The notes below the pieces were generated by a model. The model had not been told where the DNA came from. It was given only the letters and a program-made list of their open reading frames with translations, and did no database searches. The position numbers and the translations under genes are program-made. Shown piece by piece: positions 23,623-64,000 of a stretch of 64,000 nucleotides of DNA; within the stretch, counting starts at the first letter, position 1; every line of letters starts with the position of its first letter. This DNA comes from Candidatus Latescibacterota bacterium (GTDB lineage Bacteria > Latescibacterota > UBA2968 > UBA8231), in NCBI GenBank assembly GCA_965242865.1, contig CBDETK010000013.1, forward strand, positions 1,152,001 to 1,216,000, in the 5' to 3' direction.

Positions 23623-23804
23623 GAAAATTCTCCGCTAGCACCAAGCACTAAACGCTCTACTTCTCAGCATAGGCCGACGGATCGTGCGCGGCTGTTGGGC
23701 GTCGCGTCGATCTGGCCGCGTGGCCCCAAGCGCACGCTGCCGTGCGGCCTTTATGCTGGTCCCCGTTTACGGCACCACCCCCGCAAGCTGTCTGCCAAAA
23801 ACCG

Positions 23805-23882
23805 AGGGCGGAATCTCCTCGCCCCGGACGCCGCCAGAACACCAGCAAAGGCGCACCCACAGCAAGAGGCGCGTTCTGAGTG
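23805..23882. repeat. Dispersed REP/MITE-like element, copy B (degenerate)
   Basis: GAGGGCGG...CCCGGACGCCGCCAGAACACCAGCAAAGGCGCACCCACAGCAAGAGGCGCGTTCTGAG aligns with 61140-61219. Confidence 0.65.
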
Positions 23883-54636: not shown

Positions 54637-55764
54637 ATGAAAATCGAACAGATCGACTCCCTCCTGCTCGGCAACGGCTATGTCGTCCGCATCACCACGG
54701 ACACTGGCCTAACCGGCCTTGGCCAAACCGCCTGCTGGGGCTATCCCACGGCCGTGCAGAGCATCGTCGAGGTTTTCAAAGACTACCTCATCGGCCAAGA
54801 CCCCCTCCGCATCGAGCACCACTGGCAGCACCTCTACCGCATGGCCCCCTTCAGAGGCACGGTCGTCATGGGGGCTGTCTCGGCCGTAGATATCGCGTTG
54901 TGGGACATCAAGGGCAAGCACTTTGAGGTCCCAGTGTGGGAGCTATTGGGCGGCAACGTCCGCGACAAAATTCGCCTGCACCTGCTGTCGGGCGGGGCCA
55001 CGCCCGAAGCCAACTTCAACGCCGCCCAAGCGGCCGTCGCCGAGGGCTTCACCGCCATCAAGTTCGACCCCATCACCACGGACTGCCACGACAAGGGCCA
55101 AGCGCGGATGATCCAAACCGCGGTCGAGCTGACCGCGGCCGCCCGCGAAGCCGGCGGCCCGGATCTGGACCTGATCATCGAGCTGCACCGCAAGCTGACG
55201 CCCATGGTCGCCTTGGCCCTCGCCGAGGCCCTCAAGCCCTTCCACGTCTTCTTCCTCGAAGACCCGATCCAAATCGACAGCGTCTCGGCCCAAGCCCACA
55301 TCGCGCAGAAATCCACCGTGCCCTTTGGCAACGGCGAGCGGTTCGTGTCTATCTGGGAGTTTCGCGAGTTGTTGGAACAGGGCGGTCCCCAGTATTTGCG
55401 GCCGGATGTGGCCTTGGCGGGCGGCCTCTCGCATTGCAAAAAAATCGCCGCCATCGGCGAAGCCTATCACTGCGCGGTCGTGACCCACAACTTCTTGGGG
55501 CCGCTGACGACCGCGGCTTCCCTGCACCTCGACGCCTCAATTCCCAACTTTATCACGCAGGAATACACCAAGGGCGACGAAGCCCCGCACAACGCGGTCT
55601 ATCAGTGCGCGTATCGGCGCGAGGGCGGGTACATCCCGATTCCCCAAGCCCCGGGCCTCGGCATAGCGCTAGACGCGAATTTAATCGACCAGACGCCCTA
55701 CAAACCCATCAACAACGCTTCCACGCCGCTACGCGCCGACAGCTCGGTGTCTTACGCCGTGTGA
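54637..55764 (+). CDS. Galactonate dehydratase-like enolase-superfamily protein
   Basis: TDTGLTGLG, SAVDIALWDIKGK, KFDP, ELH, LEDP, GER and THN. Confidence 0.88.
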   Translation: MKIEQIDSLLLGNGYVVRITTDTGLTGLGQTACWGYPTAVQSIVEVFKDYLIGQDPLRIEHHWQHLYRMAPFRGTVVMGAVSAVDIALWDIKGKHFEVPVWELLGGNVRDKIRLHLLSGGATPEANFNAAQAAVAEGFTAIKFDPITTDCHDKGQARMIQTAVELTAAAREAGGPDLDLIIELHRKLTPMVALALAEALKPFHVFFLEDPIQIDSVSAQAHIAQKSTVPFGNGERFVSIWEFRELLEQGGPQYLRPDVALAGGLSHCKKIAAIGEAYHCAVVTHNFLGPLTTAASLHLDASIPNFITQEYTKGDEAPHNAVYQCAYRREGGYIPIPQAPGLGIALDANLIDQTPYKPINNASTPLRADSSVSYAV

Positions 55765-55773
55765 ATCTCAAGC

Positions 55774-57450
55774 CTACAAAAACCCGCCGCGCGCGTCCGA
55801 CCACGGCCCACAGCGAATTTCCAACGTCCGCGCCCCCGGCGTCCGCAGGGCGATGAGCACCCGCAAACGCCCCTCGTCGATCTCGCTATTGCGCATCCGC
55901 CCCATTGTGTGCTCCATGGCCCCCGGGCCGATGCGGATGGCGTCGTCGCCCACCCGGTAGAGCGCGTAGCCCGCTTTGAGAAAGACCGTGTGCCCGGCGC
56001 GGCCTTCGACGAGCGCGCTGTCCATCTCCAAGGTTCCGCCCGGCGCAAAGACCCCCTCAATCTGAAAGGGCACTCCATCAACGCCCCCTGCGGTGCCAAT
56101 GTGGAGGTCAAAACCGCCGGTCACTTCCTCGATGTGCAGCTCGACTGTTAGCGGCGGCAACTCGTATATCGCCCGCCGGCCCCGCACTTCCACCCAGTTG
56201 TCGGCATTGACTGGCTCGTCAATCGGCAGCCAGTAAATCCCCCCCACGTAGTCTCTTTCTGGATAGATGCGGTTGCGGCCCTTGTGCTGCATTCGCACTC
56301 CGGTATCCGCCGCGGCAAACGCTTCACCTACGAACTGCCCGGTGGCAAAATAGGTCGATGATAGCTTGACTGCGGCCAATTCGGCCTGCCCGCAGACCAC
56401 GCTAAAGGGCGCGGTCAGGCCGGCTGCGGCCGTAGCGCTGACCGCGCCCCGACGCACCCGCCACAGACCGGAGACTGGATAGACGCGGCTGTAGTGCTCG
56501 GGCAAGGGCGTCCGCTCTATACACGTCGCTCGCCACTCGGGATGCAGGACGTAGTTGGGCAGACAGACCAAACCGCTGCGGCCGCGCTCCACCAACAGGT
56601 CGGCCACGGCCGCGTACAGGCCATTGTCGTCTAAATGGGCCAAGGCGTGATAGCTGTCGGCCAAACCGGTCGGCACGGCTCGCGTATCGCGGTCCTGCCG
56701 CTTGGAAATGCTCGTCACGGCGGTCGCGTCGGCGTGGAGGAGATGGTAGGACAAGTCCAAGTTGCGCCGCACAGGTGCCAGCAGGTCGGGCCGGGCGAGC
56801 ACGTGGGCCGCGCGGATCAAGGCGCGGTTGACTACGGCATTGTACACGCCCGTGCTCCGCTCGCTGTACTCGCCATCGGCGTTGATATCAATGCCTTCGC
56901 CGAGGTACGCGTCCACGGTCGCGCTCACCGCCAACTCGGGATAGAGGGCTTGGGCTTGGGCCAAGGCCGCGACCAGCACCCAGCGGTGGTTGGGCGTGTG
57001 GAAGCCGCCGTGGGCCATGCCCGGGGCCGCGGTCTGGATGAGCTCGCCCAAAACGGTCGCGATCTCGGCCGCGCCCGCGTCGTCTGGGGCCTGTTGCCGC
57101 GCCGCAACCACGACCGGGGCAATGGCCTGCACCACAAAGCCGGCGTCCGGGGCGGAGTCGAAATTGGTGGTCAGCAGATCAAAGCAGCCCGATGGCCGGC
57201 GGTGCCGGCGGGCAAACTCAGCCGCCAACCTTATCCGCTGCAAGAGCACCTCGCTCCGGTAGTGGCGCGACTCGGGCAGCAGATAGGCGTAGCCAAGGGG
57301 CGCGACCGCGCTGATGCCGCTAGAGCCGGCCAGCCGGTCTCGATCGACAAAGCCACCGCAATAAGGGCTATCTGCGTCCAGCACTTGGCGCGTCAGCACG
57401 CCCTCAACCTGCTGGTCTAGCTCGCCGACGAGCGGCGCGTACGCGATCAT
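55774..57450 (-). CDS. Conserved hypothetical protein (predicted alpha/alpha-toroid plus beta-sandwich, heparinase II/III-like)
   Basis: Long ORF in an operon with the Gfo gene (ATGA overlap), with motifs GGFHTPNHRW and DGEYSERS..YN. Confidence 0.65.
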   Translation of the reverse strand: MIAYAPLVGELDQQVEGVLTRQVLDADSPYCGGFVDRDRLAGSSGISAVAPLGYAYLLPESRHYRSEVLLQRIRLAAEFARRHRRPSGCFDLLTTNFDSAPDAGFVVQAIAPVVVAARQQAPDDAGAAEIATVLGELIQTAAPGMAHGGFHTPNHRWVLVAALAQAQALYPELAVSATVDAYLGEGIDINADGEYSERSTGVYNAVVNRALIRAAHVLARPDLLAPVRRNLDLSYHLLHADATAVTSISKRQDRDTRAVPTGLADSYHALAHLDDNGLYAAVADLLVERGRSGLVCLPNYVLHPEWRATCIERTPLPEHYSRVYPVSGLWRVRRGAVSATAAAGLTAPFSVVCGQAELAAVKLSSTYFATGQFVGEAFAAADTGVRMQHKGRNRIYPERDYVGGIYWLPIDEPVNADNWVEVRGRRAIYELPPLTVELHIEEVTGGFDLHIGTAGGVDGVPFQIEGVFAPGGTLEMDSALVEGRAGHTVFLKAGYALYRVGDDAIRIGPGAMEHTMGRMRNSEIDEGRLRVLIALRTPGARTLEIRCGPWSDARGGFL

Positions 57451-58478
57451 CGCTGCTTCGGTGCCGCTTTGGTAAACTGGGCTACATCGGCCGGGCTGAC
57501 GCGGTAGATGCCCCCGTCCGGGCGGTCGCCCAGCGACCGATACGCCGCTTCGGTAAACTTGGCTACTGCCACGGCAAAATCTGGCCGCTCATAGCCCTTG
57601 CCGCCGTTGCGAATCCAGCGCAAAAAGGCCGCGTCCGGCGTGTCCTCCCGCACTCGCTTTGGCACCTCCAGCGGCTCCCCGTTCAGCAACACTTCGCGCA
57701 CCCGCCACTGGTGTAGATGAAAGACCAAGGTCCCTTCGTCGCCGTGGATGGCCAGCCGCTCGTCGTGCCGGCTCGCGCTGCCGACAAAGCTCAACGCCCC
57801 CAGCGCACCGCCGCGAAACCGCGCATTGACCACGGCATCCATATCCACTCGCTTGCCCCGCTTGGCCATGAAGGCCGCCACCGTTACCGGCGTCAAGCCG
57901 GTGATCCACAGCACTGCGGCCACCAAGTGACTGCCGGTGTCCATGAACATCCCGCCTCCGGCCAGTTCGGGCACCATTCGCCAGCCCTTGCCGCCCCAAT
58001 TTTGCGTCACGTAAGCGACGACCGCCTTGATCTCGCCGAGGACGCCCTTCTGCACCAGTTCCCGCGCGTACGTATAGGCCGGGTAAAAATTGCGCTGATA
58101 GCTGACGACCAACACGCGCTCCCGCTCGGTCGCCAGCTCAACTAGGGCTTGGGCGTGCCGCGCCTTCGTGGTCAGGGGTTTTTCGACCAAAACATGTAAA
58201 TCGCGCTCTAGCGCGTAGCGCGCCTGCGCGTAGTGGGTCGAATGCGGCGAAGAAATCAGCACCCCATCGAGCGCGTCTGCGCCAATCATCTGCCGGTAGT
58301 CCGCGTAATACGCGGCGTCAGCACCCCACGCTGTTAGCAGTTGCCGGGCCGACGCCTCTTCTGGATCGGCGACCGCCACCAACTCGACGCGGCCATCGGC
58401 TTGCAGCCGGGGAATGTGGGCACCGCGCATGTTGCCGCCACAGCCGATCAGGCCGACGCGAATTTTCCTTTTTGCCAT
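57447..58478 (-). CDS. Gfo/Idh/MocA family oxidoreductase
   Basis: VGLIGCG, VLVEKPL and GGGMFMDTGSH. Confidence 0.92.
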   Translation of the reverse strand: MAKRKIRVGLIGCGGNMRGAHIPRLQADGRVELVAVADPEEASARQLLTAWGADAAYYADYRQMIGADALDGVLISSPHSTHYAQARYALERDLHVLVEKPLTTKARHAQALVELATERERVLVVSYQRNFYPAYTYARELVQKGVLGEIKAVVAYVTQNWGGKGWRMVPELAGGGMFMDTGSHLVAAVLWITGLTPVTVAAFMAKRGKRVDMDAVVNARFRGGALGALSFVGSASRHDERLAIHGDEGTLVFHLHQWRVREVLLNGEPLEVPKRVREDTPDAAFLRWIRNGGKGYERPDFAVAVAKFTEAAYRSLGDRPDGGIYRVSPADVAQFTKAAPKQR

Positions 58479-58588
58479 TGCGTTCTTCTCCGTTCAGTAG
58501 GTTAATTGCACCGCTTGAGTGCGAAAAATTTTGGGCGGCGCAGGCGCGAATTGCATTCCACGATAGGCGCATGTAGTAGAGTCCTTTA

Positions 58589-59113
58589 CTACACGACACC
58601 CGAGACCAGCCGGCCAAAGATCGAGGTTTTCCCGTAGCTCTTAGTGACCGCATTGTTGGATGTTTGCCGCTTCCACACAATCTCGTTGCGAAAATTCTTC
58701 GCCCCGAAGATCACGTCCATCACCCCCTTGATGTAATGGATCGCCATCGGGTCGCAGTGGAAGTAGATGCTGCCGTTATCCTTGAGCACCCGACGGAACT
58801 CAATCAGGCGCACCGAGAGAAAGCACAGGAACGCACCGAGGTTCTCGCTGTGCGTGTGCATCGCCGCTTCAATGACTTCGACGATGGCGCGGTTGGAGTC
58901 CTTGATCTGCTCCATCCACGGGCCGTGGATTTTCTCGACCCAAAACCACTGGTCGGAATACTGGCCGCCGACAGCCTCGCGGTTACGGCCCGTGTTGAAC
59001 GGCAGGTCCATGGCGATCAGGTCGATGATGGACGAGTTCATGCCGCGCAAGGCCAGCAGGTTGTCCATGTGGAAGCCGGTGCCGGGAGTGACGTTGAAGT
59101 TAGGTTGGGTCAT
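58589..59113 (-). pseudogene. N-terminal fragment of an N4/N6 DNA methyltransferase (beta class)
   Basis: DNL..L, DLIAMDLPFN (DPPF degenerate), RRVLKDNGSIYFHCD and NFRNEIVWKR. The ORF ends before the SAM-binding motif. Confidence 0.8.
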
Positions 59114-59151
59114 TGGGACGCCCCTTTCGAGAAAGAGGATTATATGGAGGA

Positions 59152-59919
59152 TTAGTGTTTGACAATCTCAACAAAGACCCCGAGTGTTTTCTCATTGTCA
59201 TCTCGTATCTTTTCTGGGTCTCTTATTGTCCCCAAATCATAGATGACAAATAGAACACGAGGCCACCTTTGCCGATAACCATGAATATCGGCACTTATTT
59301 CTTCTTGGATTTTCGGGGCTCCGTGCCCACCTTTTGCGAGCTTCACTTCAATCGCCATCCCTTCGCCCTCAACAACAAAATCGGGCTTAAAGGCTTTTTC
59401 GCCTACTGGACTAGTCTCTTTTTCTCTTGTATAAGAGACTCCTATGGTTGTCAATATGGCCTCAACAGCATCTTGAACTTTTTTCTCTTCACTGGGCTCA
59501 TTTTCAATAAAATGGGTTCGTAATGCTCGCTTTATGGCCGCCCTAATCTCCATGCCCTCCATGGGATTAGAAAAGTCCATGCTAGGGTCTTGCTGGATTA
59601 GTTGATAGAAACCGATGGCCCTATCTACGCAATCTATCACAGCTTTGGCTATTGCGGTGCTGGCGATGCCCTGAAAAAGATTGTCAAAGGGATCATAGTT
59701 CCCTGCGTAAACTTGACCTTCAAGGTGACAAAGAGGTATCTCCACACCGGCTCTATTGACAGCTTCTTTTGTAGGAACCAGCAACCTGTTGACCCGACGC
59801 CGAAGCCTCTCCTCGTTACTTGGGTCCCCTCCCTTAATAAGGAGTTCTTCTAAATTTCTCAGAAAATCCTCAAGAAGATCAATGCGCTTACCTATGTCTT
59901 CTTTTGTTAATTTGTTCAC
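59152..59919 (-). CDS. Hypothetical protein with a C-terminal PD-(D/E)XK (REase DpnII/MboI-like) nuclease domain
   Basis: E..VQDAVEAIL, FKPDFVV...IEVK, ADIHGY and LFVIYD. GAAAGGAG RBS before GTG 59919. Confidence 0.78.
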   Translation of the reverse strand: MNKLTKEDIGKRIDLLEDFLRNLEELLIKGGDPSNEERLRRRVNRLLVPTKEAVNRAGVEIPLCHLEGQVYAGNYDPFDNLFQGIASTAIAKAVIDCVDRAIGFYQLIQQDPSMDFSNPMEGMEIRAAIKRALRTHFIENEPSEEKKVQDAVEAILTTIGVSYTREKETSPVGEKAFKPDFVVEGEGMAIEVKLAKGGHGAPKIQEEISADIHGYRQRWPRVLFVIYDLGTIRDPEKIRDDNEKTLGVFVEIVKH

Positions 59920-59940
59920 CGTCTTTCTCCTTTCTAGTTG

Positions 59941-60010
59941 ATAATTCCCCCGCGGCACAAAGCCGGCCAAGTTGCCAGCAGTGCGCCGCGGGGGATGAGG
60001 GATCTTTTTA
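59941..60010 (-). repeat. Intergenic hairpin element E1
   Basis: Minus strand: TAAAAAGATCCCTCATCCCCCGCGGCGCACTGCTGGCAACTTGGCCGGCTTTGTGCCGCGGGGGA. Confidence 0.85.
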
Positions 60011-60337
60011 CTCCTTGTCCTCGACGAAAAGCAGAAAGCTCACATGTACAGCACCTATGCAATCCAACGTACCTAGGGTGTTGCGTCCACTAGGTATTCC
60101 GCTTAATGTGCCAGTGATATGCACCTTCGTCCTCGCCGATAGACGCCGTATTGTCCGAGCCGGAATTTTGCTGCCTAGCAAAATGGAAATCTCGGACGGA
60201 TCTAACTTATCCGAATCCGAAGATTTCCATTTTATTGTACCAGCAAAAAGATCACCTGAGCCATCGGAGTCTACTTTGATCTTTTTGAGAGCGTCGCCGA
60301 TGACGTCGTTGATTACCGCCAGACTGAGTGTCTCCAT
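60008..60337 (-). CDS. Hypothetical protein (109 aa)
   Basis: The ORF fills the space between E2 and E1, with AGGA before ATG 60337. No recognised family. Confidence 0.55.
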   Translation of the reverse strand: METLSLAVINDVIGDALKKIKVDSDGSGDLFAGTIKWKSSDSDKLDPSEISILLGSKIPARTIRRLSARTKVHITGTLSGIPSGRNTLGTLDCIGAVHVSFLLFVEDKE

Positions 60338-60358
60338 CTTGATCCTACTTGAGTAAGC

Positions 60359-60422
60359 GTCCCCCGGCACGAAGCCAGCCAAGTTGCTAGTACCGCACCG
60401 CGAGGGAATGAGTGAGCTTTTA
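60359..60422 (-). repeat. Intergenic hairpin element E2
   Basis: Minus strand: TAAAAGCTCACTCATTCCCTCGCGGTGCGGTACTAGCAACTTGGCTGGCTTCGTGCCGGGGGA, homologous to E1. Confidence 0.85.
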
Positions 60423-60857
60423 GTCCCCTTCTTTGACAGTTACCTTAACTGTCTTAGGTAGCGACGGCTCAAACACCGTAGGGTCTGCGGGATAAGCAGT
60501 TACAGAGAAAGAAATATCTCTCGAACTTCCCATCTCTATCGGAATGGTTACCCGAAGGTACGTTGAGGATGTTATATCTATAACATGTGCGTCCTCTGCG
60601 ACCAGCGAATACTCTTTTGCATAGGGAACTGGAGACCAATTAAAGCGAAATAATACATATAAAATTTCACCTTCTCGCCTAGGTTCCGTTCCACATGACC
60701 CCAAAAAGGCGACATCCGCGGGCGAACATATCTCTTTACGCGGTATCTCATATTCCACGCTAAGCCGTTGTGGGGTGTCTATTCTTCTCTTCTCAGTTTT
60801 CGTCGGACTAGAGCAAGCAGCAAGAGCAAGCAGCAAGAGCAAGCTCGTGATCTTCAT
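60420..60857 (-). CDS. Lipoprotein, possible Fn3-like beta-sandwich
   Basis: MKITSLLLLLALAAC lipobox and FNWSPVPYAKEYSL...FSVTAY. GAAAGGAG RBS. Confidence 0.75.
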   Translation of the reverse strand: MKITSLLLLLALAACSSPTKTEKRRIDTPQRLSVEYEIPRKEICSPADVAFLGSCGTEPRREGEILYVLFRFNWSPVPYAKEYSLVAEDAHVIDITSSTYLRVTIPIEMGSSRDISFSVTAYPADPTVFEPSLPKTVKVTVKEGD

Positions 60858-60887
60858 GGGGTTCTCCTTTCTGGGATAGTAAAGTGA

Positions 60888-60926
60888 ATTTCGCGGCACC
60901 CAAGCGACACCGCGAGGTTGGGATTA
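60888..60926 (-). repeat. Short variant hairpin element E3
   Basis: Minus strand: TAATCCCAACCTCGCGGTGTCGCTTGGGTGCCGCGAAA. It shares CCTCGCGGTG, CTTGG and GTGCCGCG with E1/E2. Confidence 0.6.
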
Positions 60927-61103
60927 CTGCTGTTTCCGCAGCTCAACCGTGCATTCGACGCTACACGTCAACACGCCGTCCATGGACGCCTTCCGCACGT
61001 TCGGGATGTTCTCGTCGCAAATCACGTAGCGCAGAGGCTGCTAGAACGGCCGCCGAATCCTGAGATCAATATCGCCTTCTTGCCGCCCGCCTTTGTTGAT
61101 CAT
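60924..61103 (-). pseudogene. Small degenerate ORF (60 codons with an internal TAG)
   Basis: AGAAAGGA RBS, then MINKGGRQEGDIDLRIRRPF*QPLRYVICDENIPNVRKASMDGVLTCSVECTVELRKQQ*. The final TAA abuts E3. Confidence 0.4.
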
Positions 61104-61139
61104 AGAGCGTATCCTTTCTGTGGGCATCTTGCCCTCGCC

Positions 61140-61219
61140 GAGGGCTGGACGCCCTCGATCCCGGATGCAGCGAGAACACCAGAAAAGGCATACTCAAAGC
61201 AAGTGTCGCGTACTTAGGT
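61140..61219. repeat. Dispersed REP/MITE-like element, copy C
   Basis: GAGGGCTGGACGCCCTCGATCCCGGATGC...AAAGCAAGTGTCGCGTACTTAGGT, homologous to 2060-2112. Confidence 0.75.
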
Positions 61220-61230
61220 AGAGTCCCTTC

Positions 61231-61728
61231 TCAGCCGAGAAAAGCATTCGGTTCACTGTCCGGCTCTCGCGCCTTGATCCTTTGATCCTTTGTCCAGATG
61301 TGTACTCGCCATGTTGGGCCTTTATACCTCGTCTTGCGGAGATGGTTAGCCTCGTCGATGAGAATGGTGTCAACAAGGCTGATTCCTTTTTCAGGGGAGT
61401 ATCGAACAAAACCCTCTAGGAGTCCCTTTACTGCGTCCTCGTTAATTGCTGGCAATAGACTCCAAGGTTGGCCTTCGCGGATGCTAGTGAACACGACATC
61501 CCTGAGATCCACCGATAGCTTCCTGCGTGATCTACTCTCTGGTATATCGGCGATGTGGCCTGCCAGTTCAAAGATAGTCGGCAGGCTAACGTACAGTCTC
61601 GCCTTAGCCTCTACCGCTACGGCAAAACGTCTTTTTACCTCGGAGATTGCTTCCTCTGTGGAATAGCGGGGCACGGCAAAAAGCTCGCAGAGATAACTCG
61701 TATCGATCACGTAAACAGGAATGGCCAT
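61231..61728 (-). CDS. PIN-like domain protein
   Basis: VIDTSYL, IFELAGH, SLVD and IWTKDQRIK. TAATG coupling to the upstream ATPase. Confidence 0.75.
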   Translation of the reverse strand: MAIPVYVIDTSYLCELFAVPRYSTEEAISEVKRRFAVAVEAKARLYVSLPTIFELAGHIADIPESRSRRKLSVDLRDVVFTSIREGQPWSLLPAINEDAVKGLLEGFVRYSPEKGISLVDTILIDEANHLRKTRYKGPTWRVHIWTKDQRIKAREPDSEPNAFLG

Positions 61729-62954
61729 TACGACAAGCTCTCCAGCCAAGCCAGCACCTTTTTCTGACGCTGCTCCTCAAATTCTGGAGCCAGATACTGA
61801 TCGATAACTCGGCGCGTCACGAGATCGCCAAGACGACCGCGCTCTAGGAACTCATCGTATCGGGGCAGTTCGTCGAGCCGAACTAGGGTGGCACTCTTAT
61901 TCTCGGCGTCCCAAGTGCATACGACCACTCCGTCTAGCTGTTCTCGCGTGAGGAAGTTCATAGTGGCTGGATTGTGCGTGGTTACTAAAACCTGCAAACG
62001 ACGATTCTTGGCGATTTCGGCAATCGCCTTAGTGAGTACCCCAACTCGACTGGGATGCAGTCCGTTATCAAATTCCTCAATGACGATACGAGAGCCTTTG
62101 GCGACCGTCTCAAACGCGGTGAGAATCGCCAGCGTTCGCAGAGTTCCATCGGACAGAACACGCGCATCAACCTTGTATCCCGAACGCTCCTGAAAGCCGA
62201 AAATCACGTCTCCCAAATCCGTTAGCGTGAAGTCGAAATTCTGGTATGGCTCGTCAGGCAACTGACGAATTTTCTCGAGGAGTCGCTGTAAAATCGCCTG
62301 CTGCTCGTCATCTCCCGTGCTGAGTCCATACAAAACGGCTGACAGATTGGACCCATTCCTCTTCAGAATGGTGTCGCCAACGCGCTCATAACTGTGCATT
62401 AGCTTGGGATCGGGATCAAAGACAAAAGACGCTTGTAGGTGCAACATGACGGTCTGTACGGCCTGAAGCCAGCTTTTGTGCGATGGATTATCCGAGGCGG
62501 CGAATTCTCGGTATTGCGACAGCATCGATCGAACCGTCAGATCGGGGGATATAGAATATAGCTGTTTAGGTTGGGTCTCATATAGCGTCCGGGCTCCAAC
62601 CTTGAGTTTCTCACCGATAATCTGCGGATGCGGTCGTGTACAGATTTCAACTTCGTACAGAAGCGAGTGTGACCGGCCTTCTAACTTTATACTTGCTGAA
62701 AAACCCAGTTGGAACCGATCTTTCCCCTCCCGGGCACAAGCCTGTAATCCGCCCCGTACTTCGAGGCCACCACTTCCCCTCCCAAGGTCGCTGATCTCGT
62801 AGAGCGGCTGACCGCGGGCGACGAAGGACAGCAGGTCGATGGCCTCAATGACATTGCTCTTTCCCGATCCGTTGGGGCCGATCAGCAGACTGAATGGTCT
62901 GAACAGATCAATGCGGGCGTCGGCGAATCCCTTGTAATTCCTTAGATGATGCAT
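61728..62954 (-). CDS. AAA_21/ABC-type ATPase (RecF/AbiEii-like)
   Basis: GPNGSGKSN, LSDGTLR, IEEFDNGLHP and VTTHNP. Confidence 0.9.
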   Translation of the reverse strand: MHHLRNYKGFADARIDLFRPFSLLIGPNGSGKSNVIEAIDLLSFVARGQPLYEISDLGRGSGGLEVRGGLQACAREGKDRFQLGFSASIKLEGRSHSLLYEVEICTRPHPQIIGEKLKVGARTLYETQPKQLYSISPDLTVRSMLSQYREFAASDNPSHKSWLQAVQTVMLHLQASFVFDPDPKLMHSYERVGDTILKRNGSNLSAVLYGLSTGDDEQQAILQRLLEKIRQLPDEPYQNFDFTLTDLGDVIFGFQERSGYKVDARVLSDGTLRTLAILTAFETVAKGSRIVIEEFDNGLHPSRVGVLTKAIAEIAKNRRLQVLVTTHNPATMNFLTREQLDGVVVCTWDAENKSATLVRLDELPRYDEFLERGRLGDLVTRRVIDQYLAPEFEEQRQKKVLAWLESLS

Positions 62955-63011
62955 GTAGTCGATCCTCTGAAATGTGCTTTTCTCCGCAACGGATCTTCCT
63001 GCGGTGCGGCC

Positions 63012-63620
63012 CTACCCGATTCCAAGCATCTTTGCGACGAATTGGGTTCGCGCATAGAAAGCTCGACTCGTGCTGCCGTGCCCGGCTCCCTTGGTTCGCG
63101 GCTGAACCAGCACCCCCATTCTGCCGGTTAGATGTTCAAACCCCTTGGTTGCAATGCAGCTTCTCACTTCTTCATAATCTTCCTTTACTTGCTCGTAATA
63201 CGCCGCGTTATTGAGATCAAAGGCCGATACGTGCATCAAAATAGATCGGTTCTCGTCTTGAGACTCGAATAATCTGGCGCAAATCACTGCTCTTTTCAGT
63301 TTTGTAAGCAAGTGGCTTTGTTCAAAGGGGGTACTTTTGACATTGACCGGATCGATCATTGTAATAGCCATCGTCTCCTTAACCCTGATGCGACCATCAG
63401 CAAGCCTTTTCAATGGGACAATTTTTAGTTCCCACGATCCGAAGTTAGGTGACTGCGCCGAATTGATGGGAAGCCCCAAGTACCTTTCAAGCAGATGACC
63501 GGCCCATCCTTTGTTCTTCTTATCCCCTATCCAAATGTTCACTTCATATTGAGCGGCGAGTGGAACCAAATCCCGTCCCTCTAGCAATTTCAGCTTGCTG
63601 ATTGCAGTTTCCCGTTCCAT
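63012..63620 (-). CDS. MutH/Sau3AI-family endonuclease
   Basis: NKGWAGHLLERYLG, PNF..WELK, KETMAIT, L.PRTKG and RAFYAR..F. Confidence 0.85.
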   Translation of the reverse strand: MERETAISKLKLLEGRDLVPLAAQYEVNIWIGDKKNKGWAGHLLERYLGLPINSAQSPNFGSWELKIVPLKRLADGRIRVKETMAITMIDPVNVKSTPFEQSHLLTKLKRAVICARLFESQDENRSILMHVSAFDLNNAAYYEQVKEDYEEVRSCIATKGFEHLTGRMGVLVQPRTKGAGHGSTSRAFYARTQFVAKMLGIG

Positions 63621-63631
63621 TGAGTATCTCC

Positions 63632-64000
63632 TCACGCAAAATCTAAGGACGAGTGCCGGTTATTTATCGAGTCCCTCAAGCGTTCTACGGACAGAGCGAT
63701 AAACTCCGGTTCGAGTTCGGTCCCCACGAATCTCCGTCCGAGATTCACGGCAGCTACGCCCGTGGTTGAACTGCCAGAAAAAGGATCGAAGATCAAGTCG
63801 CCCGCGTTTGTCGATGCCATGATGATCCGCTCTAGGAGCGCGATAGGCTTTTGGGTGGGGTGTTTGCCAAATTTCTTTTCTTTTTTGTTAGGAGGCTTAA
63901 ACGACCATACCGATTTCATCTGTTTGCCGTGGTTCAATTCCCGCATCTTGGCATAATTAAAACAGTGCTTTGACTTTTCGTTTTTAGCGGCCCAGATAAT
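63632..64000 (-). CDS. N4/N6 DNA methyltransferase (DpnA/MboIB-like beta class), 5' end outside the window
   Basis: FNY..M...N.GKQMKSVW, HPTQKP..LLERII and DPFSGSSTTG. Confidence 0.9.
   Translation of the reverse strand: MIWAAKNEKSKHCFNYAKMRELNHGKQMKSVWSFKPPNKKEKKFGKHPTQKPIALLERIIMASTNAGDLIFDPFSGSSTTGVAAVNLGRRFVGTELEPEFIALSVERLRDSINNRHSSLDFA

Follow-up and report, generated by a model that had tools for sequence, protein, structure and literature searches.

Related stem-loops between the genes of a foreign fragment lodged in a miniature inverted-repeat element of a Candidatus Latescibacterota genome

Three GC-rich intergenic hairpins, E1, E2 and E3, were analysed in a stretch of 64,000 nucleotides from a Candidatus Latescibacterota bacterium (assembly GCA_965242865.1, contig CBDETK010000013.1, positions 1,152,001 to 1,216,000), referred to here as the window. 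The hairpins punctuate a short string of genes at 58589-61103, all of which are encoded on the minus strand. The original prediction had described four co-oriented, unrelated open reading frames (ORFs) followed by a methylase fragment; inspection of the sequence and of its ORF list bore this out, with five ORFs that all run along the minus strand, among which the nuclease was recognised by PF18742 and the methylase by PF01555. The elements were numbered by rising window coordinate, so that the order read on the minus strand is degenerate ORF, E3, lipoprotein-like ORF, E2, ORF of 109 amino acids (aa), E1, nuclease and methylase stub, the last two being separated by a gap of 38 nt. The features of the string, in this order and preceded by the fragment that carries them, are as follows (GC3 denotes GC content at third codon positions).

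58627-61121, minus strand: foreign fragment of 2,495 bp, compositionally mosaic, as judged from congener comparison, GC content and GC3
60927-61103, minus strand: degenerate ORF of 59 codons with an in-frame TAG at 61041-61043 and a host-like GC3 of 0.78
60858-60926, minus strand: spacer E3 with a 25-nt hairpin at 60891-60915 on the E1/E2 stem base, followed by the T-rich tail AATTCACTTT
60420-60857, minus strand: lipoprotein-like orphan ORF of 145 aa, lipobox LAAC found by reading
60338-60419, minus strand: spacer E2 with a hairpin at 60360-60407, homologous to E1
60008-60337, minus strand: orphan ORF of 109 aa, of doubtful coding status, with an internal hairpin at about 60165-60250
59923-60007, minus strand: spacer E1 with a hairpin at 59946-59995, defined by fold and covariance model
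59152-59922, minus strand: nuclease of 256 aa with a C-terminal DpnII-MboI (PD-(D/E)XK) domain (PF18742, E 1.1e-11)
58589-59113, minus strand: N-terminal stub of an N6/N4 DNA methylase, 174 codons, matching PF01555 profile positions 1-90 of 221

As originally predicted, each of the three spacers opened with TAA and held a hairpin built on a CGCGGYG...GTGCCG base. The position of the hairpins was constant, 9-15 nt past the stop codon and 10-25 nt ahead of the next ribosome-binding site. The motif AGAAAGGA, which had been said to end the spacers as a rule, is a plain ribosome-binding site; three genes had a site of this type in front of them (degenerate ORF, lipoprotein and nuclease), whereas the 109-aa ORF lacked one. 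Over 47 nt, E1 and E2 agreed in 81% of positions and did not differ in loop or core; their homology began in the last codons of the gene upstream and ended shortly ahead of the following ribosome-binding site. In the E1 fold, which has no bulge, lower and upper stems of 14 and 6 bp are separated by a symmetric 2x2 internal loop and capped by the loop AACUUG (-45.4 kcal/mol, z -7.85), and none of 200 shuffled sequences did as well. E2 adopted the same shape, with mismatches in its stem and no conserved bulge (-24.9 kcal/mol, z -2.21, 6 of 200 shuffles as good), and E3 formed a 10-bp hairpin in which the core was absent (-13.5 kcal/mol, z -2.10, 7 of 200 shuffles). Folding far better than the shuffled controls was therefore a property of E1 only. 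Both long hairpins were more stable on the gene-sense strand than on the opposite one (-45.4 versus -36.9 kcal/mol for E1 and -24.9 versus -16.1 kcal/mol for E2, gains of 8.5 and 8.8), because the conserved and the newly formed G-U pairs exist on the sense strand only. Two such pairs are common to E1 and E2, and three more arose in E2. The common core and the G-U-tolerant pairing claimed for E1 and E2 held up on alignment: two pairs had changed on both sides, three had become wobble pairs and 4 of 40 cells were left unpaired, and slid alignment controls paired in 35-60% of cells only. The pentanucleotide YTCAA was conserved 9-12 nt 3' of both long hairpins, a geometry of hairpin plus tetranucleotide that may resemble the right ends of IS200/IS605 elements, and the E1/E2 loop contains CAACTTG, which may be similar to the nick motifs of rolling-circle origins.

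All three spacers had been described as forming a stem; E3 was the weaker case. A covariance model built from E1 and E2, which scored 95 bits on E1 and 91.6 bits on E2, did not recover E3 even at E<=10 with filters off. The 10-nt left arm of E3 is nevertheless common with E2 and its 8-nt right arm with E1, and the MAFFT alignment placed a 17-column gap in E3 over the upper stem. In the 6-Mb genome, read on both strands (12 Mb), the generic stem pattern has 34 occurrences, E1-E3 among them, so that the chance of finding it in one 73-nt spacer is about 2e-4. E3 is probably a copy of E1/E2 with 17 nt lost internally, and since it was missed by the E1/E2 model we count only E1 and E2 as full copies and E3 as a probable deletion derivative. 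Its tail was listed as terminator-like in a terminator scan, which returned 7 sites in the region against a shuffle mean of 6.6.

The covariance search put forward with the original prediction yielded no credible copy beyond E1 and E2. In the genome itself, the model returned at E<=10 only E1, E2, the antisense of E1 and one match of E = 9; likewise, blastn-short of the genome gave no extra copy of the element. The 10-nt core was found 53 times in the genome, and a hairpin surrounded it only at E1 and E2. Among 151 genomes of the phylum (this one, G000, and 150 relatives), three had a match at E<=1 and none outside G000 was credible; the match in G086 (27.2 bits) was dismissed as a generic hairpin, and that in G079 (E 0.83) was not credible either. 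A 22-nt degenerate pattern covering the loop and the right arm was found at three loci in 185,579 species genomes, in no viral contig and in two JGI metagenome contigs, none of the five with a hairpin, and a second pattern covering the left arm had no locus in viral contigs; both scans used exact patterns, which diverged copies would escape. The proposed Rfam check was equally negative, with five sub-threshold matches at E<=10, none of them on E1-E3. Hairpins resembling E1-E3 were absent beside the paralogous methylase loci and beside the nuclease-homologue loci of two congeners (G011 and G020). A plasmid search with the block gave no match. The phage search gave 14 records, whose matches of 119-149 nt all fell in the methylase stub, inside the initial 190 nt of the query, and no phage relative of the block was found.

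The absence of attC boxes stated in the original prediction was corroborated. Pairs of R'' (RYYYAAC) and R' (GTTRRRY) boxes 35-135 nt apart numbered 0 on both strands of 58600-61250, compared to a mean of 0.47 in shuffled sequence, and no single R'' or R' box lay inside the E1-E3 hairpins. Neither E1 nor E2 had the central unpaired spacer and extra-helical bases typical of attC. In layout alone the string is like such arrays, which have two or more same-strand sites per 4 kb: its three minus-strand hairpins lie within 1 kb. A co-occurring recombinase, which had been proposed as a further check, was not encountered: there are three matches to the tyrosine recombinase family PF00589 genome-wide, the nearest about 250 kb from the locus, and the PF00589 search found no integron integrase nearby, the IntI-specific domain not having been searched for. 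The only match to the Y1 transposase family PF01797 (Y1_Tnp) was partial (profile positions 58-121) and located at 3.38 Mb, about 2 Mb from the locus. The search for Y2 transposases gave no match, but its control matched in no genome either. The dispersion expected of repetitive extragenic palindromes (REPs) was lacking, as only two full copies were present, in one 0.5-kb stretch.

The genes between the hairpins differed widely in their state. The nuclease was intact and also matched PADLOC Aga_Helical-REase (E 3.5e-12); 22 homologues were found, the best non-self one at 64% identity and another at 55%, and homologues of 42% were present in the two congeners G011 and G020. In G011 (G011:C1:5908200-5911100), the 42% homologue lies directly after polA in a low-GC islet (0.36-0.51 versus 0.60+), where its neighbours are a NotI-family nuclease and a D12-class methylase, with no E-like hairpin. 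The methylase stub was 68% identical at the amino acid level, over residues 3-161, to a 561-aa methylase-HNH paralogue in the same genome (C13:674774-675256); the homology stops about 5 bases from the junction (residue 161), and the last ~12 codons of the stub are read from the sequence of a miniature inverted-repeat transposable element (MITE) described below. At the paralogue's locus (C13:673559-676359), an FRG-domain protein precedes the 561-aa N6/N4 methylase-HNH fusion. The degenerate ORF matched no Pfam family. The 109-aa ORF found only itself among 1.84 billion representatives and gave no confident fold in a single-sequence AlphaFold2 (AF2) model (predicted local distance difference test, pLDDT, 38). 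Its internal hairpin (-45.6 kcal/mol, z -3.99) has perfect 13-nt arms at 60180-60192 and 60221-60233, and the presence of such a structure in an orphan ORF raises doubt that the ORF codes. The sole relative of the lipoprotein was a 97% identical copy. Of the claimed Fn3-like lipoprotein, the lipobox was seen by reading and the single-sequence AF2 model was all-beta; the fold itself, suggested by that model (pLDDT 53) and by Atlas fn3 rows at 0.88-0.89, is only a lead, and the single-sequence models of this protein and of the 109-aa ORF were too poor for fold searches. The 109-aa ORF and the lipoprotein showed no similarity to each other.

A DNA search with 55000-64000 of the window located the flanking 558-aa gene and the oxidoreductase gene (57447-58478) in all 30 congeners. 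For about 58630-61120, there was no match in the 30 congeners among the matches listed, save for methylase paralogues elsewhere and a 97-nt repeat, which is the right part of the MITE listed below (61122-61219). The GC content of the fragment was 0.45-0.50, versus 0.60-0.69 in its flanks. Its GC3 was low in the nuclease (0.42), the 109-aa ORF (0.51) and the lipoprotein (0.42), and high in the methylase stub (0.85) and the degenerate ORF (0.78), host genes having values of 0.77-0.81. To judge from these comparisons, the segment 58627-61121 is a foreign, compositionally mosaic fragment; it is also partly dead. It lies between the two parts of a split MITE, bordered by a target-site duplication:

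58577-58585, no strand: left copy of the 9-bp target-site duplication GTAGAGTCC, the same 9-mer as after the right MITE end
58586-58626, plus strand: split MITE, left 41 nt, with the terminal repeat TTACTACACGACAC ... GATCGAGG, identified by reading against the family alignment
61122-61219, plus strand: split MITE, right 98 nt (nhmmer E 5.7e-32, model positions 41-138 of 139)
61220-61228, no strand: right copy of the target-site duplication GTAGAGTCC, identified by reading

The MITE family has a 139-nt consensus with terminal inverted repeats, no ORF and many copies (116 blastn rows in the genome, including the self match). Duplications of 8-11 nt were read around five aligned copies, and the split copy is flanked by one of exactly 9 nt. 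The core of the element is a GC-rich double palindrome, and Rfam gave no match over the window copy. The left part had to be identified by reading, the left-half profile being too short for nhmmer to score. The congener G019 carries the 9-mer GTAGAGTCC once and no MITE. Because the split MITE keeps an intact target duplication and the site in G019 is empty, the MITE would have inserted first and the 2,495 bp would then have entered its palindromic centre, the whole block in one insertion event. Among the 45 MITE right halves that reached the start of the model, only the window copy was split, so that the MITE does not act as a landing pad in general. For four of the 45 both automated flags were negative, and three of these belong to a diverged subfamily in which the left half was seen directly upstream by reading. 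At its 5' end, the insert begins 2 nt ahead of a CAGAAAGGA motif, a position that corresponds in E3 to the one just 3' of the hairpin. Other MITE copies are located, for instance, at 2059-2112 and 23802-23880 of the window (C13:1154059-1154112 and C13:1175802-1175880), and many are present in the congeners G030 and G007.

The genes that follow the fragment are a candidate defence pair, PDC-M07B/A, at 61231-62954 (PDC-M07; 165 aa plus an AAA_21 ATPase; PADLOC E 2.4e-49 and 1.2e-97) and a type II restriction-modification pair from 63012 to about 64525, composed of a MutH/Sau3AI-like nuclease and a CcrM-like N6 methylase. In eight congeners, e.g., G019, the PDC-M07 pair stands directly after the oxidoreductase; in G005, G007 and G027 the restriction-modification pair does so, and G030 has deletions. 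What follows the oxidoreductase thus varies among congeners, which makes the site a variable defence hot spot. The spacer at 58500-58575, upstream of the oxidoreductase, keeps a short reading frame (SWN.IRA...) that is conserved in the window and in G019; it seems to resemble the start of MmeI-type restriction-methylase genes and could be the relic of an older gene.

Other strains were compared by means of Logan contigs covering 57400-62600, which cannot reveal rare circular forms. The runs that contain this DNA include sponge metagenomes, and no RNA data set was listed among them. The gene order was unchanged in the contigs of three further runs, X1, X4 and X10, each from a different study, and neither cassette reshuffling nor joints at hairpin boundaries were observed in them; the variation between strains that the original prediction had proposed to look for was thus not seen. 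In X1, which may be the source run of the assembly, the stretch was unchanged. A single 25.8-kb contig of X4 spans the stretch at ~97% identity; the gene order is retained, and the interval 58531-61224 is free of indels. The X10 pieces, of ~96% identity, cross the left MITE junction and keep the order. In this run, a 1-nt deletion at 60235 leads to a frameshift in the 109-aa ORF, in-frame length changes occur in the signal region of the lipoprotein (single contig, depth 7.4), and a 76-nt deletion has ends that do not coincide with hairpin boundaries. As the fragment is present in the X4 and X10 strains, the insertion is older than the 3-4% divergence between strains. Two joints, 58626->61139 and 58626->61191, were rejected as rearrangements, as their short sides measured 26 nt and they were read as contigs of other MITE copies; 36 letters of the X1 joint match the MITE copy at C13:2635060-2635113.

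Several known systems offer points of comparison. Early genes of phages carry double-strand-specific processing hairpins between cistrons, and operons carry REP-type stabilisers at 3' ends. The elements share with such structures the occurrence of related hairpins between unrelated cistrons, about 20 paired bases with an internal loop, a position shortly past the stop codon and a ribosome-binding site left free; here, in contrast, the elements belong to an uncultured symbiont of sponges, and a phage origin of the block could not be recognised. By this analogy, E1-E3 would work most like the stem-loops that lie between cistrons in mRNAs of phages and operons. A genome with REPs has tens to hundreds of them, dispersed, and they are associated with RAYT transposases. 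E1-E3 resemble REPs and the mosaic elements composed of them in being GC-rich imperfect palindromes, intergenic and directly after genes, but they differ in that there are two full copies in a single 0.5-kb stretch, and the real dispersed repeat of this genome is the different, 139-nt MITE. Clusters of attC sites lacking an integrase (CALIN) are described by Cury et al. 2016 (PMC4889954). Measured against that description, the similarities are co-oriented, promoterless small genes each followed by an imperfect palindrome, sites alike within the array, one strand that folds better and no integrase nearby. The differences from the same description are the absence of R''/R' boxes, bulged bases and an unpaired central spacer, hairpins of no more than 48 nt, only 2-3 sites, no other array in the collections searched and no variation in order. 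The embedding of defence genes in other defence loci is reported in a preprint by Payne et al. 2024 (10.1101/2024.01.29.577857). The present locus is similar to what is set out there in that restriction-type genes lie in a variable hot spot beside PDC-M07 and a type II restriction-modification pair, with congeners differing; it is distinguished by its entry point, a MITE palindrome, and by a partly broken cargo.

Taken together, these data led us to favour E1, E2 and E3 as sense-strand intercistronic RNA stem-loops that would have been inherited with the foreign fragment, a reading to which we assign an even chance of being right. It was drawn from a hairpin position that is constant relative to the stop codon, the ribosome-binding site left free downstream and the terminator-like tail of E3, as well as from the sense-strand fold, the compensatory changes, the unchanged order and the lack of attC boxes, of an Rfam family, of a nearby recombinase and of any other copy in the collections searched. 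The long hairpins are stems of some 20 bp, stable on the sense strand, that sit between cistrons and do not occupy the ribosome-binding site, which is also what a processing site or a stabiliser would look like. E1, E2 and the shortened E3 would then be copies of one intergenic stem-loop punctuating a short co-directional gene string; they would have originated by spacer duplication in the donor genome and arrived as part of the 2,495-bp fragment that now sits inside a MITE in a defence-island hot spot. The hairpins could protect the 3' end of the upstream mRNA, could be processed by a double-strand-specific enzyme (some 20 bp are available, with the 2x2 internal loop in between), or could act as a leaky terminator that ends part of the transcripts; the outcome would be an unequal dosage of neighbouring cistrons. 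One of the two alternatives in the original prediction, a repeated cis-acting RNA in a phage or integrative and conjugative element accessory region, is thereby retained in part: the foreign insertion and the sense-strand fold agree with it, but no phage or plasmid relative of the block was found, and the function as RNA is inferred. Several observations weigh against an RNA role. Homologous spacers between unrelated genes require a history of duplication or recombination, and the GC3 mosaic, with GC-rich hairpins between low-GC genes, is also predicted by a cassette model. The covariation between E1 and E2 was not significant with two full copies, 125 of 500 shuffles doing as well. E1 and E2 have no U tract and were not in the terminator list, which held E3 only, and they would therefore not be classical intrinsic terminators. 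The 76-nt deletion in X10 (59979-60054) eliminates the 5' arm of hairpin E1 together with the final 15 codons of the 109-aa ORF, so that both are expendable in that population, and the whole block may be decaying.

Three other explanations were weighed against this one. The hairpins could be copies of a selfish palindrome of small size (REP-, PATE- or MITE-like, spread by a Y1/HUH transposase) that was abundant in the donor and hitch-hiked on the fragment with no role in the present host; this is unlikely in our estimation. GC-rich imperfect palindromes just past stop codons, in 2-3 copies, are what a fragment from another genome would be expected to bring, the YTCAA 3' of both long hairpins may recall IS200/IS605 right ends, and the donor was not among the collections searched; yet no multi-copy donor was found, the three genome, zero viral and two metagenome pattern loci all lacked the hairpin, the sole Y1_Tnp match was partial and 2 Mb away, and no target duplication or terminal features were seen outside the hairpin. 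We consider it similarly doubtful that the hairpins are a neutral relic, i.e., one spacer duplicated long ago in decaying debris, and do nothing. The orphan state of the 109-aa ORF and the lipoprotein, the stop within the degenerate ORF, the methylase truncated at the junction, the loss of the upper stem in E3 and, in X10, the frameshift at 60235 and the deletion across E1 are all in line with such decay. However, pairing was kept through two double and three wobble changes at 81% identity, the loop and the core are identical in E1 and E2, the nuclease, one of a family of 22 proteins, is intact, and X4 (~97%) shows no indel over 58531-61224.

The least likely of the rivals is the other alternative of the original prediction, under which the hairpins would be sites where an unrecognised gene-capture system of integron-like or HUH type, acting in trans, recombines or nicks single strands, and the string an array built cassette by cassette; we regard this as highly improbable. 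The outcome that the original prediction had itself named as refuting, a lack of further copies together with an invariant gene order, was the one obtained within the reach of the searches and contigs used. The gene-hairpin-gene layout with unrelated genes, the low-GC3 genes split by GC-rich hairpins in a higher-GC3 frame, the strand asymmetry of the fold, the CAACTTG in the loop with its possible likeness to rolling-circle nick motifs and the start of the insert 2 nt before CAGAAAGGA, as just 3' of the E3 hairpin, would be accommodated by it. It is opposed by the failure of every search to find extra copies, the count of R''/R' pairs (0 versus 0.47 by shuffling), the near-perfect stem of E1 without bulged bases, the distance of about 250 kb to the nearest tyrosine recombinase together with the lack of a Y2 match (though the control matched nowhere), the identical order in X1, X4 and X10, in which the 76-nt deletion does not end at hairpin boundaries, and the nuclease homologues of G011 and G020 without adjoining hairpins. 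A more specific version, in which strand-specific nicking sites acting in trans would be cut in the invariant loop, the genes would have been stacked singly in the donor and the same chemistry would have placed the string in the centre of the MITE, has a chance that is slimmer still.

The repeat is thus real but a small and ordinary kind of feature, and its reading as a capture system is not supported; a broad importance would follow only if it were, after all, a new single-strand capture site. A gene-hairpin-gene layout is by itself no sign of a cassette system. If the favoured reading as intercistronic stem-loops is true, the elements would represent ordinary operon punctuation on a horizontally acquired, partly decayed fragment of restriction type. 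The locus would then serve as a worked example of how a defence hot spot of a sponge symbiont may gain cargo when DNA that carries no mobility gene inserts into a MITE at its palindromic core.

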